Source: Octopus vulgaris (taxonomy: Eukaryota). Taken from it: DNA of 64,000 bases. Under the pieces are notes generated by a model. That model saw only the letters and a program-made list of their open reading frames with translations. It did no database searches and was not told the origin of the DNA. The DNA lies in assembly GCA_951406725.2 (NCBI GenBank), contig OX597839.1, positions 22,878,001 to 22,942,000 of the forward strand, in the 5' to 3' direction. This document shows, piece after piece, positions 3,182-64,000 of this stretch. The number at the start of each line of letters is the position of its first letter. Positions within the stretch are counted from its first letter, which is position 1. A program made the position numbers and the translations under genes.

Positions 3182-3999
3182 GGTTGGAGTCCAGGAGTGT
3201 AAAAGAGTTCCACAAAATCAAGTCAAATACATCTATGGCCATTTCGGGAGTTCATTGCTGTGGTTCGATTACAAGTTAAGGTGCATCTCAGCAATGACCC
3301 CTCTCATCAGGATGAATAGGAATCTCAACAAATTGTTTGTTCACAATGCTGCATGGCTAACTTAAAAATAACACCACATGGTTAAGTTAGAAATAACACC
3401 ACTACTGAGAGTAGGAAAACCGGGACAACGTTGCCAAGCAAACCCTGTTTTTCAATCAGTAAGACAGTATTACACAGGAGAGACTTGGCTGCTATTTCTA
3501 GCAGGCTGATCACATGGAACAATGATTCACAACCTTTGCAATATCAGGGGCTAAATTGAAAACCAAGAATTTTTTTTTTTCTTTAAGGGTCCACACCAAA
3601 TGGAAGTACAAGTTAATTAAAGAAAAATTCATTATATTTATAGAGGGCAAAATCATTGGGGGTCACCGGGAGGACACTCGAGGGCCACATGCATCCCTGG
3701 GGGCCACGACTGAGAGTGGCTGATTCAGATGCTTTCTCCTTGGTCCCTTTATTTACAGTTTGATACTGGAGGTTGAGGGAGGAAGAAAGGGAACTCCCTT
3801 TAAATCATCCTCAAATTTGTATTGATCATTGATCATTCAAGAGAAATCAATAAATCAAGACTAAGGAATGGTAAATCGGTTTTAGAATCTTTGATTCTTC
3901 AACATTTTCAATAAATCTAATCTTACTGCCCCTCCACCCATACCATTCCCCCTTTCCTTAAGATTAATAATCGCAATGATGATGACAATAATCTCTCCT

Positions 4000-29224: not shown

Positions 29225-29920
29225 GTATGTATGTATGTATGTATGTATATATAGTTGAAAAAATTCATTATAGGTATAAAGATACCATAAACAAGTATAA
29301 AAATGGAGAAAATATGTCAAAATCAAAATTGGATTTAATACATATGTACATTTCAAAAACAATACAAACATGTAAGAAAAAAATAATAATAATAATAATA
29401 ATTATAATTAAAGTTATGCATTGTCATTCTCATCAGTGTGAAGAATTTTAGGAAGAACATCAAGAAAGATATTAATAAAAATCAAGAAGGAAAACCAGAT
29501 GGGGTTAAAGGGAAAAATTTTACCAGATATTTACAAACAAGTTGTAAGAGAGACGAAAATGAAAGACCTATCAATGTGTATGCAAGTCCATTTGTGCAAA
29601 AATCTATAACTTAAAAAGTCTAATGGATATATTTAAAAAATAGTAAAAGATCAAGACGAAACATAATGTAAACAAAAACACGTTTGTCTAGCAGATATAA
29701 ATAACACGTTCACTAACAGAAAAAAGCCATAGAGAGTCAGATGTATACATATTCGTATTGAAAGCGAAAAAAATATATTACAAGAAGCTTCTAACTAAAT
29801 AACAAAATTATATTTTAAAATTGATTCAATATTTGAATAGTTTTGGGCATCAAGCAATGAAATAACCAAAAACCTAACACAGAGAAGACGACCATCATAA
29901 CAACAACACACACCACTACA

Positions 29921-34490: not shown

Positions 34491-34533
34491 CCACTACAAT
34501 CGTTTCATGTCTTCAATGACATTCGTCAGGTGG
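34491..34533 (-). ncRNA. Minimal type I hammerhead ribozyme (Penelope-like)
   Basis: Minus strand: CCAC-CTGACGA-ATGTC-ATTGAA-GACAT-GAAAC-GATT-GTA-GTGG. Perfect 4-bp stem I and 5-bp stem II, intact core, GUA cleavage triplet. Confidence 0.85.
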
Positions 34534-49985: not shown

Positions 49986-50971
49986 TCATCGGATACTGTT
50001 GTATCTCTTCGTACCGGAATAGCAATACACTAACTTCTTTTGTCTTACTATCGCTGATAACTCCACAAGACACCTGACTAGAACTGTCAACTGTTGATTC
50101 TCAACTCTTCAACTCTTGACCATCACTTGACGACTGGCTACTGGTCTGTTTATAATGGCTGTCCCCTACCACTTTTTACCAGGAGGGGTATACAGTTCCA
50201 CTATACAATTTCACATGCAGGTTGTTCCATTATACAGGTCTTCCTGGATTGGGTGAGGCACTGTGTTCTTGAGCAAGACACTTCATTTCACATTGCTCCA
50301 GTCCACTCAGCTGGCAAAAATAAGTAACCCTGGGAGGGACTGGGGTCCCATCCAGGTGAGGAATATATTCGCTACGGAAACTGGAAATCCAGCCCTATGA
50401 GTCTCTATAACTGAGGAAGGATCTTTATCTTTTTATTCAATGTATGTATATGTGGTGGTATATGGCTTAGTGGTCAGGGTGTTGGACTCGTAATCATAAA
50501 ATTGTGGTTTCGATTCCTGGATCGGGTGAAACACTTCATTTTCACATTGCTCCAGTCCCCTCAGCTGGCAAGAATGAGTCATCTTGTGAGGAATTTACAT
50601 GAAACCAAGAAACTGACCATTATGAGTTGGCACGACTCGAGAAGGTGACCTTTACCTTTGTTTTTAATATTGACCGGATCAACTGGAACACTCGTCGCTG
50701 TAACTGATGGAGTTCCAGTTAGAACCACAGCAAAGAATGGACAGAGAAAAATAAAGGTGGATGACTTGAAGTTAGCTGACGTCTGTGAACGACGCAGGGA
50801 CAAGGCTGTGCAGATGCAGCCGCTTTGTAGATGACAGATCTTCATTGCTTGAACAAATTATGGTACCAAAGTACCCCTGTCTCTGCACCTCAACTCTGTC
50901 CATTCTGAATTTCTACAGAATTACATTGCAATCAATTGCAAAAGAGTTCCGCAAGTTGAGTTGGTTCCAAA

Positions 50972-51484
50972 TCTATATATATAAAAGTGAGGTTGTGTGC
51001 TGTCTGTCTCCTACGATTTAGATTCCTAACTACTCCCACATTTTGCGGTGCAGTTTAACCAAATTCGGGTATCTTATAGTTGTGATTCATATCAAGCCCG
51101 TCTGAGTATTAGCGCGCGTCTACGATGAGTCTACGATTTTAAAAATAATTTAACATCATTTTTTATTCCATTTTAATGCATATTTTTTCGTGTGTCGATG
51201 GCGGCGGAGTTGGCGTCCATGGTCACACCTGCACCTGTGTTGCTTCTCCCCCTTCTTCCCTCCCTCGTGAAGCTGTGGGGAAGGGAGTTTAAGGAAATCA
51301 ACGTCGTAATGCGTTGTCAAGGAGACCAGCGTTCTTTTAGAACAACAACTTCATGGCTTGAAGACACCAAAACAGAAATGGCTAAGAAAGCCCGAATTGG
51401 CATCTATAAGGGAAGCAACTCTCTAAAAATGCTTATATAGTTATTTCCCTTACAAACCTGAGCAACGCCGGGCGATACTGCTAG
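50972..51484 (+). mobile_element. Non-autonomous Helitron
   Basis: A|TCTATATATATAAAAG...CCTGAGCAACGCCGGGCGATACTGCTAG|T. Confidence 0.9.
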
Positions 51485-51689
51485 TTCTTTATATAGAATT
51501 AGGAAACTAAATAAATTCCTGTCAATAATTCAGGATAGAAGCATCAGATAGGTTCCAGTGGGGAAACTTCATAAATATGTAATTGCCAGAAGCAGAAAAT
51601 ATTCTCCTGTGGCAAACAACAAAAGTCTCAAATCACTTAAATGGTAAAACTGCTGATGGACAGCAAAAACAAAGGAAAACCATTTAACC

Positions 51690-51722
<33 letters not shown>

Positions 51723-51863
51723 GTTGTTAGCTTTGCTATTATCATCCTCTTACTCCCCCTCATTATTTTTGCATTTGATTTTGTACTCTTCTTCCCTCCT
51801 TGGATAAGTTGGATAAACCTTGAAGCACATCAATCTCTTTACTGCATATATTAACTGGGTGTA

Positions 51864-52298
51864 CAAAGGGTGTCGAAAAGATCCCGGCTTTGGGTTTAAA
51901 GGAAATACAGGATGAGGATCAGTTAATTATGATTTCATTCAGCATATTTCCCTCTCAGAGTCACACACATAGTGCAGTGGTCCTTCAGGTTTTCTAAGCC
52001 CTGTGAAAGACCTCAGAAGGCCTTTCATGATACCCTTAAAGCCAGGAACTTTTCAGATAGACACACAGACAGACAGATAGATATAGGGATTGCTGAAAAG
52101 TTCCTGGCTTTGGGTAAAAGAAAATAGAGAAGAATCAGTTATGATTTCCTTCAACATATTTCCCTCTTCTCAGATTCACACACTTAGTGCAGTGGTCCTT
52201 CAGTTTTTCTAATCCCTGTAAAAGGATTCGGAAGGTTGGGTCATCAACCAGGCCTTTTGCAATACCCTTAAAGCAAGCATCTTTTCAGCAGCCCCTCA
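51864..52298 (-). mobile_element. Two tandem mariner-derived MITEs (51864-52056, 52085-52298)
   Basis: Both are reverse complements of 40583-40805. Confidence 0.8.
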
Positions 52299-52374
52299 TA
52301 TTATATGCCACCATCAGTATTGGAGGTGTTCTCTGCAGAAGGAATGTTTGACAATTTATCAGAGAGATGCCAGA

Positions 52375-52590
52375 CCCCTCTGGCACCTGTGCAGGTGGCA
52401 CGTAAAAAGCACCCACTACACTCGCGGAGTGGTTGGCGTTAGGAAGGGCATCCAGCTGTAGAAACACTGCTAGATCAGACTGGAGCCTGGAGCAGCCCCT
52501 GGCTCCCCAGACCCCGGTCGAATCGTCCAACCCGTGCTAGCGCGGAAAACGGACGTTAAACGATGATGATGATGATGATGATGATGATGA
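52375..52590 (+). mobile_element. RTE 3' UTR with (GAT)n
   Basis: Same core as the other copies. Confidence 0.82.
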
Positions 52591-52964
52591 AATCAATTAC
52601 CTTTCTAGAGGAGAATTGCTCAGTAGTACTTTGTGGTACTTCATGGTACTCTGTGGTATTCCATGGTACCATACAGATTTGCTACCAACATATTTCTGAT
52701 TTTATGGTGACATACTGAAACAACCAACTGTATATTGGACATGGCAGGCTTGGACTTAAAAAAACACAAGACCATCAGATAATAATGCTTTCTACTATAG
52801 GCACAAGGCCTGAAATTTTGAGGGAGGGGATAAGTCAATGACATCAACCCCAGTGCATAACTGGTACTTAATGTATCGACCCCAAAAGGATGAAAGCCAA
52901 CCTTGACAGAATTTGAACTCAGAACATAGCAACAGGCAACCATCAGATAATAATGTTACAAGTT

Positions 52965-53181
52965 TCATTATCTTTTACTTGCTTCATTCATTAGACTGTG
53001 GCCATGCTGGGGCACTGCCTTGAAGAAATTTTAGTTAAAGGGATCAACCCCGGTACTTAATAATTTTTTTTTAAAGCTTCCTACTTATTTTGTTGCTCAC
53101 TTCTGATGAGCTGCTAAGTCACAGAGGCATAAACACACCAATACTGATTATCAAGCAGTGGGAGGAGGACAAACACACATA

Positions 53182-53217
<36 letters not shown>

Positions 53218-53510
53218 TACAGACACACATAGATACATACACACACACATGCACATAAATACACACACAGAAACATACACCCACATAGATACATACACAT
53301 AGATATACACACACACATATATATAGACACACACACACACACATATGTGACAGGTTTCTTTCAGTTTCCGTCAACCAAATTCACTGACAAGGTTTTGGTC
53401 GGTCCAAGGCTATGGCAGAAGACACTTATCCAAGATGCCACACAATGGGACTGAACCCAGAACCAAATGGTTTGGAAGCAAGGCTTCTTACCTCACAGCT
53501 ACACCTGCAT
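52965..53510 (-). mobile_element. Older SINE family A copy with expanded internal microsatellite
   Basis: Diverged head and tail recognisable. Confidence 0.8.
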
Positions 53511-53519
53511 ATTAATGGA

Positions 53520-53960
53520 AAAGCACGAAAATAGCTGGGAGCAACCTAAAAGACAAAAGCCATGAATGCAGCCATTGATGATCCCTTTGAAGGGAGCCAG
53601 CAGTTGAGAGTGGAGTACTTCAGGGAGCTGTCCTTAGGCCAATACTGTTTATAACAGCTCTTACAGCCGTACACCAGTTATTACAACAATTCTCATTAAC
53701 TTTGAATTAACAAAGAAAATGATCAAGAGAGCTAATGATATTAACAAGCTAGAAACTGACCGCAAACTACAGTTCAAAGCCATGAAATGTCAAGTACTCA
53801 GCTAATGACATTCTGACATTTTGCAACCTGAATGTGCAGGACCAGGAGAACTTCCAGTCCCACAGTGAGATTCTCTCAGTAAAACTAATAAGGTAACATC
53901 ATGGAGATGAATGGATTCTGAGAACATTTACAAGATATCAAAAAGCTGTATTAATCCTGT
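53520..53960 (+). mobile_element. Degraded CR1/L2 reverse-transcriptase fragment
   Basis: ESGVLQGAVLRPILFI resembles SGVPQGSVLGPxLF; LQFKAMKCQVL resembles MxFNxxKCxVL. Confidence 0.7.
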
Positions 53961-54081
53961 GAAAGATCTATGTCCTCAGTGAACTAAATTCTTGCCATCA
54001 GCTACAAAACATCTCTGCAGAACTGGAGCCAATCAAATGGCCTTACTCTAATAAAATTGTCTCTATTTGTAATAAATAAGA

Positions 54082-54427
54082 AGGCACGTGGCTCAGTGGT
54101 TAGAGCATCAGGCTCACAATCATGAGGTGGTGAGTTCGATTCCTGGACCATGCTATGTGTTGTGTTCTTGAGCAAGACACTTTATTTCATGTTGCTCCAG
54201 TTCACTCAGCTGTAGAAATGACTTGCGATGTCTCTGGTGCCAAGCTGTATTGGCCCCTTTGCCTTTCCCTTGGGTAACATTGGTGGCATGGAGAGGGGAG
54301 GATGTTATGCATGGGTGATTACTGGTCTTCCATAAACAACTTTGCCTGGACTTGTGTCTCTAAGGAGAACCTTTTAGGTGCAACCCCACGGTCCTTCAAT
54401 GACTGAAAGGGGTCTCACCACTTTACC
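54082..54427 (+). mobile_element. SINE family C
   Basis: Full copy. Confidence 0.87.
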
Positions 54428-54871
54428 TAATGGTGCCTAGTCAAAGTCAACTGGCTGGGATCAATAAAAGAGTAATAAAAAGAGAAGTGACTGGAAAAAC
54501 AAGAAAAGACAATGTAAAGTAAAAGAGGATCCCATGGTCTTGTTGAGGACATGAGCACCTCTCTAATGCTGGTGCCATGATAAAAAACACATTTAACACA
54601 GCTTGTAAAGGGGTTGATGATAGGAAGGGTACCTAAACACAGAAACCAAGCCAAAGCTTAAATGTACAAACAAGGTGTAAGTCATTTGATCCAGCCAAGA
54701 GAGTAATTAACTCTAAATAAAAGAAATTGACCCATTCAATACTTGCCAGCATGCCGAGGGGAAAGTAGACATAGAATGATGTGTGTGTGTGTGTGTATGT
54801 ATGTATATTTCAAAATGTGACCTCGTGTGTACCGTTGGCGATTTTTTTCCCTCTGTCTTCCCTTCTCCTAT

Positions 54872-54906
54872 GTTTCCAACGAAGAGCTCCGCTTGAAACG
54901 TTAAAC
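54872..54906 (+). ncRNA. Decayed minimal type I hammerhead motif
   Basis: GTTT-CCAACGA-A-GAGC-TCC-GCTT-GAAAC-G-TT-AAAC. Stems are present but the core reads CCAACGA instead of CTGANGA. Confidence 0.5.
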
Positions 54907-56333
54907 CCTCCTTCTTTCCTTCTCTCCTGAGCGTCCAATAATACTATATTTGTTCCACGTCCTAGCGTTGTTGTGTTCTTTTGTGCTTTCATGTTTGGAT
55001 TAACTTTATACATACATATATATATATATGCATGTGTGTGTGTGTGTGTATGTGTGTGTGTATATATATATGTCTCTCTCTCTTCCTCTATCTATATGTG
55101 TGTGTGTGTGTGTGTGTGTGCTTGGGACACCCCCTACAGAGAATGAGAATAAGGACAATGGTGAAATGTATATCGGAAACAAATGCTATAAACTGCATCT
55201 TGTGTTTAGCATGCTTTTGCCTGTATGTATACAGAAATGTATATACACATACATACATGACATACATGTGTAAACGTTTTTGTTGTTATTCAGCCCCAAA
55301 ACAGAACAGACCTATGATCAGAGGAACTCCAGCCATGACAACCCTGTCTCTTATCAAATGTGTCGTTTACATGTTTACGATGATAGTGTATGACTCAACA
55401 AGGACTTAGCTGCTATTTCTAGCAAATAAAACAACTCAGTAGAGGCTCCCTCATTATGTTGTCTGAGAAGATTGATGATAATGTTTTACAGCAACACTGA
55501 AATGGTGCCAAACCAGAATAGACCACCGTTAATGTGGTCCAGCCTACAGTTTCTCTGTAGTTGCTGTTGTTGTTGTTCTTGTTATTGTTGTTGTAAGAAA
55601 ACTCTAGCTATGTGTTGCATGAGAATAAGTTGATTAGTAAGAAAAAGACGCGGATTTGATAAATGAATTCGCTGCTAAGATGGATGTCTTCGTTTGAACT
55701 GTGGAAGAAAAATCAGCAAACAGAGAGCGAGAAGATGGATCAGGAAAGAAGCGGGAATTAAAAATGGCACATCATTCTGTTTGCAGTAAAGATAGATGTT
55801 GGCAAGAACACAAGAGCTAAATGTAGGGTGTGGATTTAATTGAACCAGTCAGTTTGGAAATTGGGAAATTTTTTGGGTTTTTTTTTGGTTTTTTAAAAAT
55901 ATTTATTTAAATATAGATGTGGCAAAAATATGTTATTAAAACATTTATCAATGAATAAAAGGTGATTTTATATATGTGTGTGTGTATATATATGTGTGTG
56001 TGTGTGTGTTTAATTTAGAAGAGAATTGCTTGTAGACATAGTGAGGGGGCCAATTTGGGTTGGTGAAAAGGGAAGTATTAAGGGTTTTGTGCAGCTGTTT
56101 AGTTTAAACATCTGGATGTTAGGGTTAAAGTATGGAGTGAGGATGATGAGGAGGAGGAGGAGGAGGGAGAAGAGGAGGTGGTGGCGATGGGGATAGCCAC
56201 TTCAGAAGGTTGGTGGCCTGGGATGGAATGTGGGTTGAGAAAAAAAAGGGTTAATATGGGATTCAGTGGAATAAAACAGACACACACACACACAGAGGTA
56301 TGTATAAAGCAGAACACAAATGGAGTTTAAAAT

Positions 56334-56412
56334 TCACAACAGCTGTTTCAGCAGCCCTTCGTTGATGACTACTTAGTTTGCATCGTGACTGGAATCTGCT
56401 ATTTTCAGGTGA
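56334..56412 (-). ncRNA. Type I hammerhead motif with long loop II
   Basis: Minus strand: TCAC-CTGAAAA-T-AGCAG...CTGCT-GAAA-CAGCTG-TT-GTGA; G8 is mutated to A. Confidence 0.6.
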
Positions 56413-56576
56413 TTTTGAATAAACAGACAGGTAGGCAGGCAGAGAATTCTCAAGATGAGCAGCTCACCAAGACACAGGGCAAGAACATCAATCTTCACTT
56501 TCTCGCTGCCAATGTCTTCCCTATATATTGCAGAAACTTAATTCCTTTTCCCAAATAAGTTGCACTTCATATTCGA

Positions 56577-56657
56577 GGCTCTGATGAAGTTATAAGGTAT
56601 TACTCAGGCACTCAACTAGGAGTTCATTGCAGCTCAGAGCAGAAACAGCTGTAAGCT
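56577..56657 (+). ncRNA. Type I hammerhead motif with long loop II
   Basis: GGCT-CTGATGA-(54 nt)-GAAA-CAGCTG-TA-AGCT; core intact, stem II weak. Confidence 0.6.
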
Positions 56658-56762
56658 AATGAAGTTCATAAGATAACTGTTTTTTCCTTTGTCATCTCAT
56701 TATCTTATAGAGCTAAGGCAGTCCCTATTCTAAAATTGGAATGATAAAGAGAAGTTTAGCAT

Positions 56763-57175
56763 GGAGTGGCTGTGTGGTAAGTAGCTTGCTGACCAACCAC
56801 ATGGCTCCGGGTTCAGTCCCACTGCGTGGCATCTTGGGCAAGTGTCTTCTGCTATAGCCCCGGGCCGACCAATGCCTTGTGAGTGGATTTGGTAGACGGA
56901 AACTGAAAAAAGCCTGTCGTATATATGTATATATATATATGTGTGTGTGTGTTTATGTGTCTGTGTTTGTCCCCCGAGCATTGCTTGACAACCGATGCTG
57001 GTGTGTTTACGTCCCCGTCACTTAGTGGTTCGGCAAAAGAGACCGATAGAATAAGTACTGGGCTTACAAAGAATAAGTCCCGGGGTCGATTTGCTCGACT
57101 AAAGGCGGTGCTCCAGCATGGCCGCAGTCAAATGACTGAAACAAGTAAAAGAGTAAAAGAGTAAAGAGTAAAAGT
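56763..57175 (+). mobile_element. SINE family A, full length
   Basis: Young copy with (AAAAGAGT)n tail. Confidence 0.92.
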
Positions 57176-57242
57176 ATGGCCCCTATGCAAGTTTGACATG
57201 TAAATTCATGATGTATTCCATATTTGTTTTAGAATGATAGTG

Positions 57243-57582
57243 AAGGTACATAGCCCAGTGGTAAGACCGTCAGGCTCACAAACATAAGATAGTGAGTTCA
57301 ATTCCCAGACAGGGCTGTGTGTTGTGTTCTTGAGCAAGACACTTTATTTCACGATGCTCCAGTTCACTCAGCTGTAGAAATGAGTTGCGATGTCACTGGT
57401 GCCAAGCTGTATCGGCCCCTTTGCCTTTCCCTTGGATAACACTGGTGGCGTGGAGATGGGAGGCCAGTAGGCATAGGTGACTGCTGGTCTTCCACAATCA
57501 ACCTTACCCAGACTTGTGCCTCAGAGGGGAACTTTCTAGGTGCAATCCCATGGTCATTCATGACTGAAGGGTGTTTTTATTC
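57243..57582 (+). mobile_element. SINE family C
   Basis: Full copy. Confidence 0.87.
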
Positions 57583-57844
57583 TTTATAGATATACATATA
57601 TCTAGGTGGGGGGGAATTCATATGCCATGGAAACCAGCCCTTAAGAGTCAGCATCACATGAGAAAGGTGACTTTACCTTTAGTTTAGTGAAGCCTAGTTG
57701 GGCCAGGCTCAGTTCACCAACTGGAAAGGTGCAGCAAGTCCAAGATGGCTACTGGAAACAGAGCTACTATTGGACAAGACAGGGTCATATGGTGTTGTTG
57801 GAAGTGGAATCAAAATTTCAGTGACATCAAACCCATATATATAT

Positions 57845-58054
57845 ACTCTTTACTCTTTTACTCTTTTACTTGTTTCAGTCATTTGACTGCGGCCATGCTG
57901 GAGCACCGCCTTTAATCGAGCAACTCGACCCCGGGACTTATTCTTTTGTAAGCCCAGTACTTATTCTATCGGTCTCTTTTGCCGAACCGCTAAGTGACGG
58001 GGACATAAACACACCAGCATCGGTTGTCAAGCGATGCTAGGGGGACAAACACAG

Positions 58055-58123
<69 letters not shown>

Positions 58124-58132
58124 TACGACAGG
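57845..58132 (-). mobile_element. SINE family A, 3' part
   Basis: Reverse complement of about 56910-57175. Confidence 0.9.
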
Positions 58133-58133
58133 C

Positions 58134-58699
58134 ACGCATAAATTATAATGGTTATTGACAATTTTGTCTATTTTCAGCATATTTGTCATTAGAATTTTTC
58201 TTTTGCCCTTATTTTATAAGTTATTTATAAATTTAACCAATAGAAGTATTTTTTAATATGCTGGCCATTGATAAAATTCTTTTTTTTTTTTTCCGAAAAA
58301 AATTTTATCCTACATTAGATGTAAACTTAATAGTGTTCACTTCTGGACTCTCTCACTCTGTGAGAGTTTCTAGTTCGAATCACACGTGTCTCGAGGTGTG
58401 CAGAAGATTTTCTATTTTGGATATATTTGGTGTACTTAGGTCTGCTCAGGACTTAGTGCTTGCTTTTTCCATGAGTACAAGTAAGTATTTCATTTATGTC
58501 TTACGTATTTATCGCTGAGGAGGGGAAAATTCTTATGAATTAACTCTGAAATTGGGAGCAATACGGTAATAACGGAATTTGTTTAGAAATTTCTATCAGC
58601 TTGTTTCGAGACGCATAAATTATAATGGTTATTGACAATTTTGTCTATTTTCGGCATATTTGGCATTAGAATTTTTCTTTTGCCCTTATTTAATAAGTT
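58134..58699 (+). mobile_element. Element with ~89-bp direct repeats (period 477 bp) and decayed hammerhead-like motifs; Penelope/retrozyme-like
   Basis: ACGCATAAATTATAATGGTTATTGACAATTTTGTC... at 58134-58222 and 58611-58699. Confidence 0.55.
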
Positions 58700-58777
58700 T
58701 TATATATACACACACACATATATATATATAACTCTGACTAACTGCATTGTGTCTCTTTCATTCATTTTCCCACCCAC

Positions 58778-58814
<37 letters not shown>

Positions 58815-59416
58815 CAGTAATATTAATTGGCAGAAGGTACAAAGTGACCCAAGCGTCATGAGTTTCGTGCACTGGCACTTATCAAGCTTTGATAAATGCC
58901 AATACAAAAACCTATCAACCTTTGAGGAGTCATGCTCCAACTTGAGTCAATTATTCCTAAAACCATTGTATTTGCTCAAGTTCTATTTTCCTGTTTTCAT
59001 CATTAAACCTATAAATATCTGCCTAGGCACAGGCGTGGCCGTGTGGTAAGAAGCTCACTTCCCAACCACATGGTTTCAGGTTCAGTTCCAGTTGCGTAAC
59101 TAACACCTAGGGCAAATGTCTTCTAATGTACCCCCAGGCCAATCAAATCCTTTTGAGTGGATTTAGTAGACAGAAACTGAAAGAAGCCCATCATATATAA
59201 CCAGCACCAGTACTGCTAGAAATAAGAGTCAAAACAACTCAAGAGCCACAGAAAGCACTACCTTAATGAAGTGACAAGGGAGAAAAGCTCCCTAGATTCG
59301 CAGATACAGTTAGATCATGGATGATTTCATGTTCTGATGCTCAACGCATCCCAACACTCATTTCATATATATATACACACACATATACATATAGACATAT
59401 ACATATACATTTACAT

Positions 59417-59450
<34 letters not shown>

Positions 59451-59639
59451 GTGATCATCATTGTCGTCATCATCGTTTAACATCTGCTTTCCAGGCTGGC
59501 ATGAGTTGGACAGTTTGACATGGAGTTGGCAAAGCTGGGAGCTGTCCAGGCACTGATTGTCTGTTGTGGTACGGTTTCTATGGCTGGATGCCCTTCCTAT
59601 ATATGTATATGCATCTATGTGTGTGTTTGGAACTCACGT

Positions 59640-59940
59640 TCACAGTGATACGTTACTGACACCTTTGGTAAAATGCCATGCTTGCGAAGACTCGTCACGG
59701 CAAGTGAAATCATAGTTGTGAACGATCCTGGTGTCAGGTAACTGGCACCTGTGCCAGTGGCACGTAAAAAGCACCCACTACACTCTCAGAGTGGTTGGCA
59801 TTAGGAAGGGTATCCAGCCATAGAGACCAGGCCTCGACAGATGACTGGAGCCTGATACAGCACCCCGGTCTTACCAGTTGTAGTCAAACCATCCAACCCA
59901 TGCGAGCATGGAAAGCACGTGCTAAATGATGATGATGATG
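59640..59940 (+). mobile_element. RTE 3' UTR with (GAT)n (older)
   Basis: GTGGCACGTAAAAAGCACCCACTACACTC core. Confidence 0.75.
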
Positions 59941-60962
59941 CACACACACACACATATATATATATATTTATAGATAGATGTATATAAGAGTTCAGCTGCT
60001 GATGTCAAAGAAACAGAAATGTTCAAAGTTGTCCCCTTACTCACCCAAACAATAATGTAAACTCACCCAGAAAAGTTTTACCTATTCTCCACATTTAACC
60101 TCACCATTGTTAATTCTGATTTTAAAAAAAGTCAAATCAAATACAACTTTATCTATGACACCACACACACACATACACACACAAATACACACACATATTT
60201 ATTTCAATCTGTATATATATACACACATACATATACACATATCTATATCAACAATATATATGTACACACACACAAATACACACACACATACACACACAAT
60301 AGATATTTTTTTAAACCAGCAGCATCTGCTGTCAAAAGCTGCATCTAGATTCAACCCCATGTTGCACCACTGTGCGCAACAGCATCCCCGGTCCTTTAAC
60401 TCCCCTCCACCACATATCACAACATCCTTTGACAAATTCGGCAGAGGCTGAGGAAGAGGGTGGGGTGCAGGAAGTAATCTCCTATTGTCCTAACTACCTC
60501 TCCCCGCTCCCCCAACTCGACCGTCCAACATCAAAGCAAGTGCCTGCCTCTCACCTCCAGCTTCTAACCAAACACATCCCGCGCTGCATCTCAAGAATGG
60601 ATTGCCTCACTGATTAGCCAATGTGCGAACCATTGATGTGGAAAACCTTCTTAAACTGAAGTAGGTTTTAGAAAATATGACTGATATACACATCTAAGAA
60701 GGTTCCGGCTTGCTGTTCCATTATGTATGAAGAAGCTTGCACGTTAATATGCATATGTCTTTGTATTCATATCTTCTCAAATGCTTCACATACACGAGTG
60801 CATCTATATCGAGTGTACACATACATACATACATACATACATTCTTCCATGGATATGTACATAATATATATATATATGTGTGTGTGTCCCCTGTGTATGT
60901 GACTGTAAGTATATATGTGTGTGTGTACTTGTGTATGTGTGCAGATATGTAGGCACATGCAC

Positions 60963-61007
<45 letters not shown>

Positions 61008-61220
61008 CATGTATTTGTATATGTGTGTGTGTATTGATCTGGGAAGGATGGGAAGCAAAAAAAAAAAATGATTTTAGTAGGATTTGAACACAGAATGCTG
61101 ACAGGTGGAACAAATATTGCAAGATTTTCTATCCAACATTTTAATGTCTTTGACAATTCACTGCCTGATTATGTGTGTGTGTATGTATGATGTATGTATG
61201 TATGTGTGTATACATATATG

Positions 61221-61283
<63 letters not shown>

Positions 61284-61357
61284 GCATACAGACAGAGAGG
61301 TTTGGTGATGCAAACAAAAAAATGGAACTCAAAACATGAGTTTGAGTGTATATATAT

Positions 61358-61422
<65 letters not shown>

Positions 61423-61507
61423 TAGATAGATATACACATATTATTCATATTTAGCAGAAGCAACAGTATGACTCAAGGGCTGAGTGTTTCATGCATTGCC
61501 ACTTATC

Positions 61508-61557
<50 letters not shown>

Positions 61558-61799
61558 ACACAGATAGCTCACACAAAGAGGAATACATAAATATGTATGT
61601 CTCTTCACACCTATAAATATATATTCCAATGTGTGCGTGTGTGTGTGTGTATGTGTGTGTGTAATTGTTAGTGTAACCTTCAATTAAAATCCCCCTACAA
61701 AAAAAAAAAATTCGGGAGAAATATCAAATTTAAGAGAAAGTACTCAATACATAGATGCAGATTAGCTGTCTCGTGTATGTACGTATGCATTTGTGTGCA

Positions 61800-61862
<63 letters not shown>

Positions 61863-61903
61863 ATATGTGCGTGTATATATGTATATGTATGTGTGTGTGT
61901 GTG

Positions 61904-61934
<31 letters not shown>

Positions 61935-62009
61935 TGACAGACAGACAGACAGAGATCGACAGATATATATGTATGTGTATACTTACAGATGCATTATGTA
62001 CCTGTATAT

Positions 62010-62040
<31 letters not shown>

Positions 62041-62100
62041 TTCTTGCATGTAGACTGCTTCATTACATACATAAATGCAGTGAAATAATAAATATACATG

Positions 62101-62157
<57 letters not shown>

Positions 62158-62168
62158 GGACGCTAAAC

Positions 62169-62201
<33 letters not shown>

Positions 62202-62237
62202 ATATATATATGTATATATATGTGTATGTATGTGTGC

Positions 62238-62274
<37 letters not shown>

Positions 62275-62379
62275 TGCATAATTTTTTTTACAGATATATA
62301 AAATATCTGCTTTCATTTATCTAAGAAATATATGCAAACCTGTGTGTGACTTTATAAAATAATGCCATACGCACACAAG

Positions 62380-62415
<36 letters not shown>

Positions 62416-62529
62416 ATGAAACAAGTATTCAGAATGCATGCGTATACGCAGCATGACTGTATTTGTGTGTGTGTGTGTGTGTTATTATGCATGCCTTTAC
62501 ATATCCTCATAAACCAAAAGAATTTACAA

Positions 62530-62853
<324 letters not shown>

Positions 62854-63339
62854 AATATAGAAAAATATATACACATAACACACGAAAGACACATAGCAGC
62901 AGCAGCAGCAGCGGCAGCAGCCTCCTCAGCGTCGGCAGCGTCAGCAGCACGGTGGCTGTGTAGCCTTCTGCAACGGCATCGCACAATATATATGCAGATC
63001 CCCTTTGATTAATGGAGCGTAGACATGAATGCATTCATGAGGAATTAGCAATAGAAAAGCCCAGCGTTGATGTTAAAGCTAGAGGCCAGCAAACGGAGTT
63101 TAGTTGGCTGGCCTCTCACTCGAAGCCGCTTTCATTGCTAAACATGATAGACAATTTATAGAATGCTCCTTTATACTGTCTGGACCACCAGAGACACACG
63201 GCTTCTTACCAAGCTCTCTCTCTCTCTCTCTCTCTCTCATTCCTCCCCTCTTTCTTTCTCTCTCCCTCTTAGTAAGAGCAGATTTTTTTGTCTTTATTTT
63301 TTTATATGTGTGTGCGTAAGTACATGTATTTGCTTATTC

Positions 63340-64000
<661 letters not shown>

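Follow-up and report, generated by a model that had tools for sequence, protein, structure and literature searches.

Two outward-facing hammerhead motifs in Octopus vulgaris lie on head-to-head end fragments of two dispersed, likely Penelope-like, families

Two hammerhead motifs on opposite strands, close enough to fit within a few hundred nucleotides, may be parts of one genetic unit or neighbours of separate origin. Such a pair lies near the right end of the window, the 64,000-nt stretch of the Octopus vulgaris genome analysed here, and had been described in an earlier note as two distinct ribozymes in one ~325-bp unit. A descriptor scan returns exactly these two motifs at the coordinates and on the strands originally reported, 164 nt apart and directed outward. 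Four motifs with a palindromic helix III reach a score of at least 10 in the window, and none does in any of the eight block shuffles (8/8). Rfam gives no hammerhead match over 56250–56750 up to an E value of 10, and none among the 150 of 240 whole-window matches listed. The features discussed below are as follows:

56334..56412, minus strand: hammerhead motif, family B (descriptor scan: TCAC, CTGAAAA, 52-nt region, GAAA CAGCTG TT, GTGA)
56577..56657, plus strand: hammerhead motif, family A (descriptor scan: GGCT, CTGATGA, 54-nt region, GAAA CAGCTG TA, AGCT)
56298..~56487, minus strand: family B arm, 5′-truncated 3′ end of a likely PLE-type element (profile E 3e-41)
~56484..56711, plus strand: family A arm, 5′-truncated 3′ end of a likely PLE-type element (profile E 3e-69, model positions 84–315 of 319)
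56484..56500, no strand: head-to-head join of the two 5′-truncated arms, no spacer (A model start 56484; B models to 56478 and 56500)
56710..57227, plus strand: decayed U6 snRNA copy (Rfam), a neighbour outside the pair that starts at the arm A end

Three further hammerhead-like motifs, all on the minus strand and of other families, occur in the window at 3230–3314, 29339–29440 and 34491–34533, with helix III sequences TGGCCA, TGTACA and CGATTG, respectively; the one at 29339 crosses simple repeats and may be due to chance.

Two families and one join

Similarity searches of the 2.8-Gb genome separate the two halves of the pair. A 421-nt query gives 2161 candidates, 40 of which were scored, and every scored match except the window itself starts at query position 186 or later, that is, in the right half only. 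A query made of the left half gives 152 candidates, and the 40 scored (71–86% identity) lie at places other than the right-half matches. Each half thus occurs on its own at many loci; when a 141-nt query over the middle was used, all 13 of its 13 candidates were scored and none besides the window crosses the join. The motifs therefore do not travel together, and of the unit originally proposed the two distinct hammerhead motifs stand while the unity does not, since the halves are found at separate loci. The arm profiles were built without the window copies, and the family A and B profiles do not match each other's copies at E ≤ 1e-3, in agreement with the earlier view that the pair is not a simple inverted duplication.

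Both arms are incomplete. The longer B model enters the window at position 315 of 522, so that arm B is 5′-truncated, and copies of both families elsewhere continue further 5′ than at the join, indicating that truncation affects both arms there. Arm B has a short untailed end at 56298; arm A also has a short end, with no tail after it, and a search for a displaced arm A tail in 50001–56720 and 56801–64000 found none. The A and B models overlap by 4–16 nt at the join, possibly reflecting microhomology. Three other runs (organism labels A, B and C) have contigs that cross the join, with 3, 0 and 4 differences, respectively, so that it is not an assembly error. There is no tandem array at the locus among the matches listed, and each family model matches the window once. 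The arms thus belong to two families and are directly joined and decayed, and no second copy of the pair was found in these searches.

The features that had seemed to tie the two motifs to one another dissolve on comparison with the families. The contrast between the two stems I, previously taken for covariation, is a difference between families and not covariation inside one element. The faint loop similarity (10 of 14 positions) is equalled by 566 of 2000 shuffles, and over 225 non-independent family pairs the likeness of loops II shows a slight excess (mean 9.6 versus 9.2). The palindromic CAGCTG is also carried by family C (see below) and by three other motif groups of the genome, and therefore provides no tie between these two arms.

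State of the two hammerheads

The right-arm motif matches the CUGANGA / GAAA / UH core at all positions (core 56581–56587, GAAA 56642–56645) and is of type I, with a GUA site and a predicted cut after 56653. Read by eye against the family majority, 4 of the 12 stem II pairs are broken in this copy, which folds no better than shuffles (z −0.17). The left-arm motif, likewise of type I, has a GUU site with a predicted cut between 56338 and 56337 and a 5-bp stem II that follows one unpaired U. Its core reads CUGAAAA and so departs from the consensus by G8A at 56403, whereas G8 is kept in 48 of the 56 family B copies. No difference is listed at 56403 in the four other runs compared, indicating that the change is old.

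In an unconstrained fold, the family A majority sequence forms both stem I (4 bp plus 7 bp) and stem II (12 bp) at −31.9 kcal/mol, and stem I of family B reaches about 12 bp. Hammerhead folds over stems I and II are obtained for the family A majority and for the family B copy L047 (z −2.71), but for neither of the two window copies. The nucleotide left unpaired before stem II, after A9, is A in family A and U in family B, and the palindromic helix III CAGCTG is present in both. The parts of the Poseidon_Ac study (PMC11167929) that deal with mutants report that C3G or G8C, and hence a broken C3–G8 pair, abolishes cleavage, and that cleavage is not required for insertion in vitro. The mutants tested there differ from the G8A of the left arm, which by analogy would be expected to abolish cleavage likewise. 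Both window hammerheads are predicted, from fold and core, to be inactive or weak. Lying on opposite strands, they have no common transcript and hence cannot form a helix III dimer within one transcript.

Variation within the family A core was also observed at the positions that correspond to 56581–56583 of the window, where U4 is replaced by C in 22 of 57 copies and G5 by A in 10. This is the pattern of a decaying CpG, and a U4C core may have been present in the source element of family A or in one subfamily.

Penelope-like character of the families

The wider behaviour of these families was followed in 161 distinct loci (A 63, B 69, C 29), picked by similarity and not at random, with family C defined from locus L018. 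Same-family head-to-head pairs within 100 nt are present at 23 of the 161 loci, and the tail-to-tail arrangement is represented by a single entry, an overlapping match. Exactly one arm is tailed in 18 of the 23 pairs, neither arm in 5 and both in none, and tails follow 22 of 113 solo copies, a count that includes the 20 copies used for the tail profiles. Read by eye, the flanks of most short ends run into TA or CA repeats. In some same-family B pairs private variants are common to both arms. The combination of 5′ truncation, insertion at TA repeats and same-family head-to-head pairs argues for ends like those of Penelope-like elements (PLEs), to which families A and B likely belong. One copy (L006) carries an internal deletion, and an array resembling a retrozyme was seen in these families only at L124:1486–1922, where three pieces of family B lie in tandem.

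A coding partner was sought by several routes. Extending family B upstream led, at about 500 nt, into low-complexity sequence and nothing else. The long family A copies L062, L064 and L066 share flanks and were considered as a parent element; no PLE frame is among their listed open reading frames, one of which looks transposase-like. Candidates for a GIY-YIG frame number 6136 genome-wide, 150 of which were scored, and no reverse transcriptase/GIY-YIG frame linked to A or B was found in the GIY-YIG loci examined. Thirty such loci contain no A, B or C end; 16 of them do have a same-strand hammerhead downstream, in no case of family A, B or C. Among 20 extended GIY-YIG loci there is one A pair, beyond that element's own end, and a GIY-YIG remnant in L232 was rejected as a parent, not being linked to the nearby A pair. 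As no coding partner was found, PLE membership rests on anatomy, and the two families may be non-autonomous. The genome also contains an abundant young GIY-YIG element (L204–L229) with many 781-aa frames and a hammerhead with a U3–A8 core about 450–1000 nt past the GIY-YIG domain.

Most of this anatomy has published counterparts. Minimal type I hammerheads occur in the pseudo-LTRs (pLTRs) of PLEs (Cervera and de la Pena 2014, PMC4209133), in which the dual motifs described are about 100–700 bp apart on opposite strands, as here. By comparison with the motifs presented in that paper, loop II of those in the window is long (52–54 nt between boxes), an additional A precedes G12 in family A, and the site is GUU in 52 of the 56 family B copies; arms from different families are not discussed in the sections consulted. 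Endonuclease-bearing PLEs (Craig et al. 2021, PMC8557442; Adineta Penelope, PMC3846280), as portrayed in the relevant sections of those papers, resemble the present families in their 5′ truncation and in the inverted truncated copy placed head-to-head, and also in carrying a single tailed end, inserting at (TA)n and joining by 5′ microhomology with no duplication of the target. In those elements, however, the inverted arm normally derives from the element itself, tails measure 30–40 nt (about 75–260 nt here), and an endonuclease is encoded, whereas no ORF has been linked to A or B. The two internal reverse-transcription start sites given for Poseidon_Ac (PMC11167929) would fit the short and tailed ends seen here, and its target is similarly AT-rich; its ORF begins inside the hammerhead, and no such frame was found here. 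Finally, animal non-LTR retrozymes, as presented in the portions consulted of PMC7229834 and bioRxiv 10.64898/2026.07.22.740005, resemble these families in being short, non-coding and PLE-related with a type I hammerhead, but are defined by tandem units, which the window locus lacks. The families are therefore new but of a known kind, and the arrangement, except that it mixes families, is a published one. The main texts of the literature searched showed no account of head-to-head PLE arms from different families, and the derivation of the arms from two families is the sole unusual point of the locus.

Origin of the mixed pair

The locus consists of two 5′-truncated end fragments of two dispersed families, likely PLEs, which on balance were most likely brought together by two separate insertions at a shared site. 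Each arm would have been made by target-primed reverse transcription from the short start site of its own family, stopping after about 200 nt. The later arm would have inserted at the 5′ border of the earlier one; microhomology would have joined the two, and the intervening target would have been lost. The hammerheads would then be passengers of the element end (pLTR), and in the parent elements they would process tandem RNA, probably as dimers formed through the CAGCTG palindrome.

The main competitor, which we regard as a less probable but serious candidate, is a single integration event with two RNAs, in which the two ends of a break were primed by complexes of different families, A at one end and B at the other, and the cDNAs were joined 5′ to 5′. 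The geometry of the window pair is that of the same-family pairs, with a direct join and no spacer, and two independent first primings would also yield two short ends. The ages of the arms overlap (0.130 for A over 210 sites and 0.169 for B over 165 sites, a difference that is not significant). Moreover, a second mixed head-to-head pair exists at L018:1158–1688 (contig C1, near 126548800), with family C on the minus and family A on the plus strand about 30 nt apart, as does a tandem A-to-B chimera at L054:1421–1605, where A ends just after its own cleavage site and sequence resumes in the B catalytic core, the switch point being a look-alike motif common to A and B. However, the window pair and L018 are both untailed, so that the one-tail signature of same-family pairs is missing in 2/2 mixed pairs, which favours separate insertions over one event with two RNAs; by our own arithmetic, two untailed mixed pairs have a probability of 0.047 under the rule of same-family pairs and of 0.42 for independent solo copies. 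A head-to-head excess of other families is not seen either. Other hammerhead families take the head-to-head position at 0 of 122 unpaired copies (those left after 39 paired or complex loci were dropped) versus 6 of 854 control strands, in a partner scan that detects only 20–41% of known copies; a 13-group motif library, built largely from the same loci, places none at head-to-head position within 300 nt in 161 loci versus 6 in other orientations. From chance alone, 0.22 abutments by any family would be expected over the 161 loci, and one case (L018) is seen. The best candidate for a target duplication around both arms, a 9-mer with 7/9 identity, is equalled by 255 of 2000 random flanks and has its right copy in the U6 remnant, although the test is weak because the flanks of same-family pairs are mostly microsatellite. 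In addition, the part of PMC3846280 concerned reports no cross-mobilisation between PLE types in a rotifer.

Some observations speak against separate insertions, among them the lack of a significant age difference between the arms. Direct mixed A/B/C junctions occur at 2 of 160 unselected loci (L018 and L054) versus about 0.08 expected, a figure limited to A, B and C that we derived by rough arithmetic from two distant neighbours in 471,727 nt of flank; common TA targets would explain this excess. No TA remnant is seen between the window arms. One contig can be read either way: in run X8 (organism label D), 243 nt of sequence fits 56280–56492 with 16 differences and 2 gaps, and its 31 letters past 56492 do not fit. 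Arm A could be absent from that organism; a later indel is as likely, since arm A differs by 13% from its consensus and so appears to predate that split, which amounts to about 8% in all.

A further alternative, which we consider doubtful, holds that the two insertions, each perhaps an ordinary pair, first lay some distance apart and that the DNA between them was later deleted. Such a deletion would account at once for the shortness of both outer ends and for the lack of partners and of a spacer, and other copies do carry internal deletions (L006). It needs an extra event, and this event would have to be old, as the same join is present in the three other runs. The original picture of a two-ribozyme unit, for instance an integrated circular RNA, viroid-like or ambisense, that carries one hammerhead per polarity, draws on the two opposite-strand motifs within 325 nt but is largely refuted and highly improbable, given that the halves are separate multi-copy families with a single-copy join, that family sequences run past the join position in longer copies, that the left core is G8A and that the 415-nt stretch has no compact rod fold (z +1.31; 90 of 100 shuffles fold as well). 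Among runs listed as RNA, none contained more than 0.05 of the words of the locus, which is no proof that circular RNA of both polarities is absent.

As it stands, the locus matters little, being the decayed scar of a published insertion pattern, yet it warns usefully that a viroid-like genome can be mimicked in animal DNA by hammerheads paired in opposite polarity. Should mixed-family joins be single events, they would be relevant to the way in which PLE insertions acquire their inverted arm. It is conceivable, although less probable than separate insertions, that PLE reverse-transcription complexes of different families can share one DNA break or switch between each other's RNAs. Were this so, cross-family integration from two templates would have left its fossils in the window pair, in L018 (C/A) and in L054 (A-to-B), and the inverted arm need not stem from the same RNA molecule. 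The one-tail rule would provide a simple marker for telling single-event mixed joins.

The favoured reading of separate insertions at a shared site is consistent with the neighbourhood of the pair, which has also received a U6 copy and repeats. Rfam detects U6 at 56710–56764 (E 7e-4) and 57124–57227 (E 6e-6), both under the gathering score; the copy is interrupted by one repeat and followed by another, both of which we take to be SINE-like. Scattered U6 copies followed on the 3′ side by SINE-like sequence are frequent in the genome (48 scored matches) and often come after TA runs. A recurrent link between U6 and the arms was considered and rejected, as U6 is found at 0 of 161 other loci and family A, B or C at 0 of 30 U6 loci. 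At L250:1270–1500, read in the U6 orientation, an arm of another CAGCTG hammerhead family stands head-to-head with a near-perfect U6 copy, with a short TA run between them. Separately, a tandem cluster on contig C1 near 139.42 Mb (L258–L262) comprises five U6-variant copies with conserved upstream sequence, which are probably true genes.
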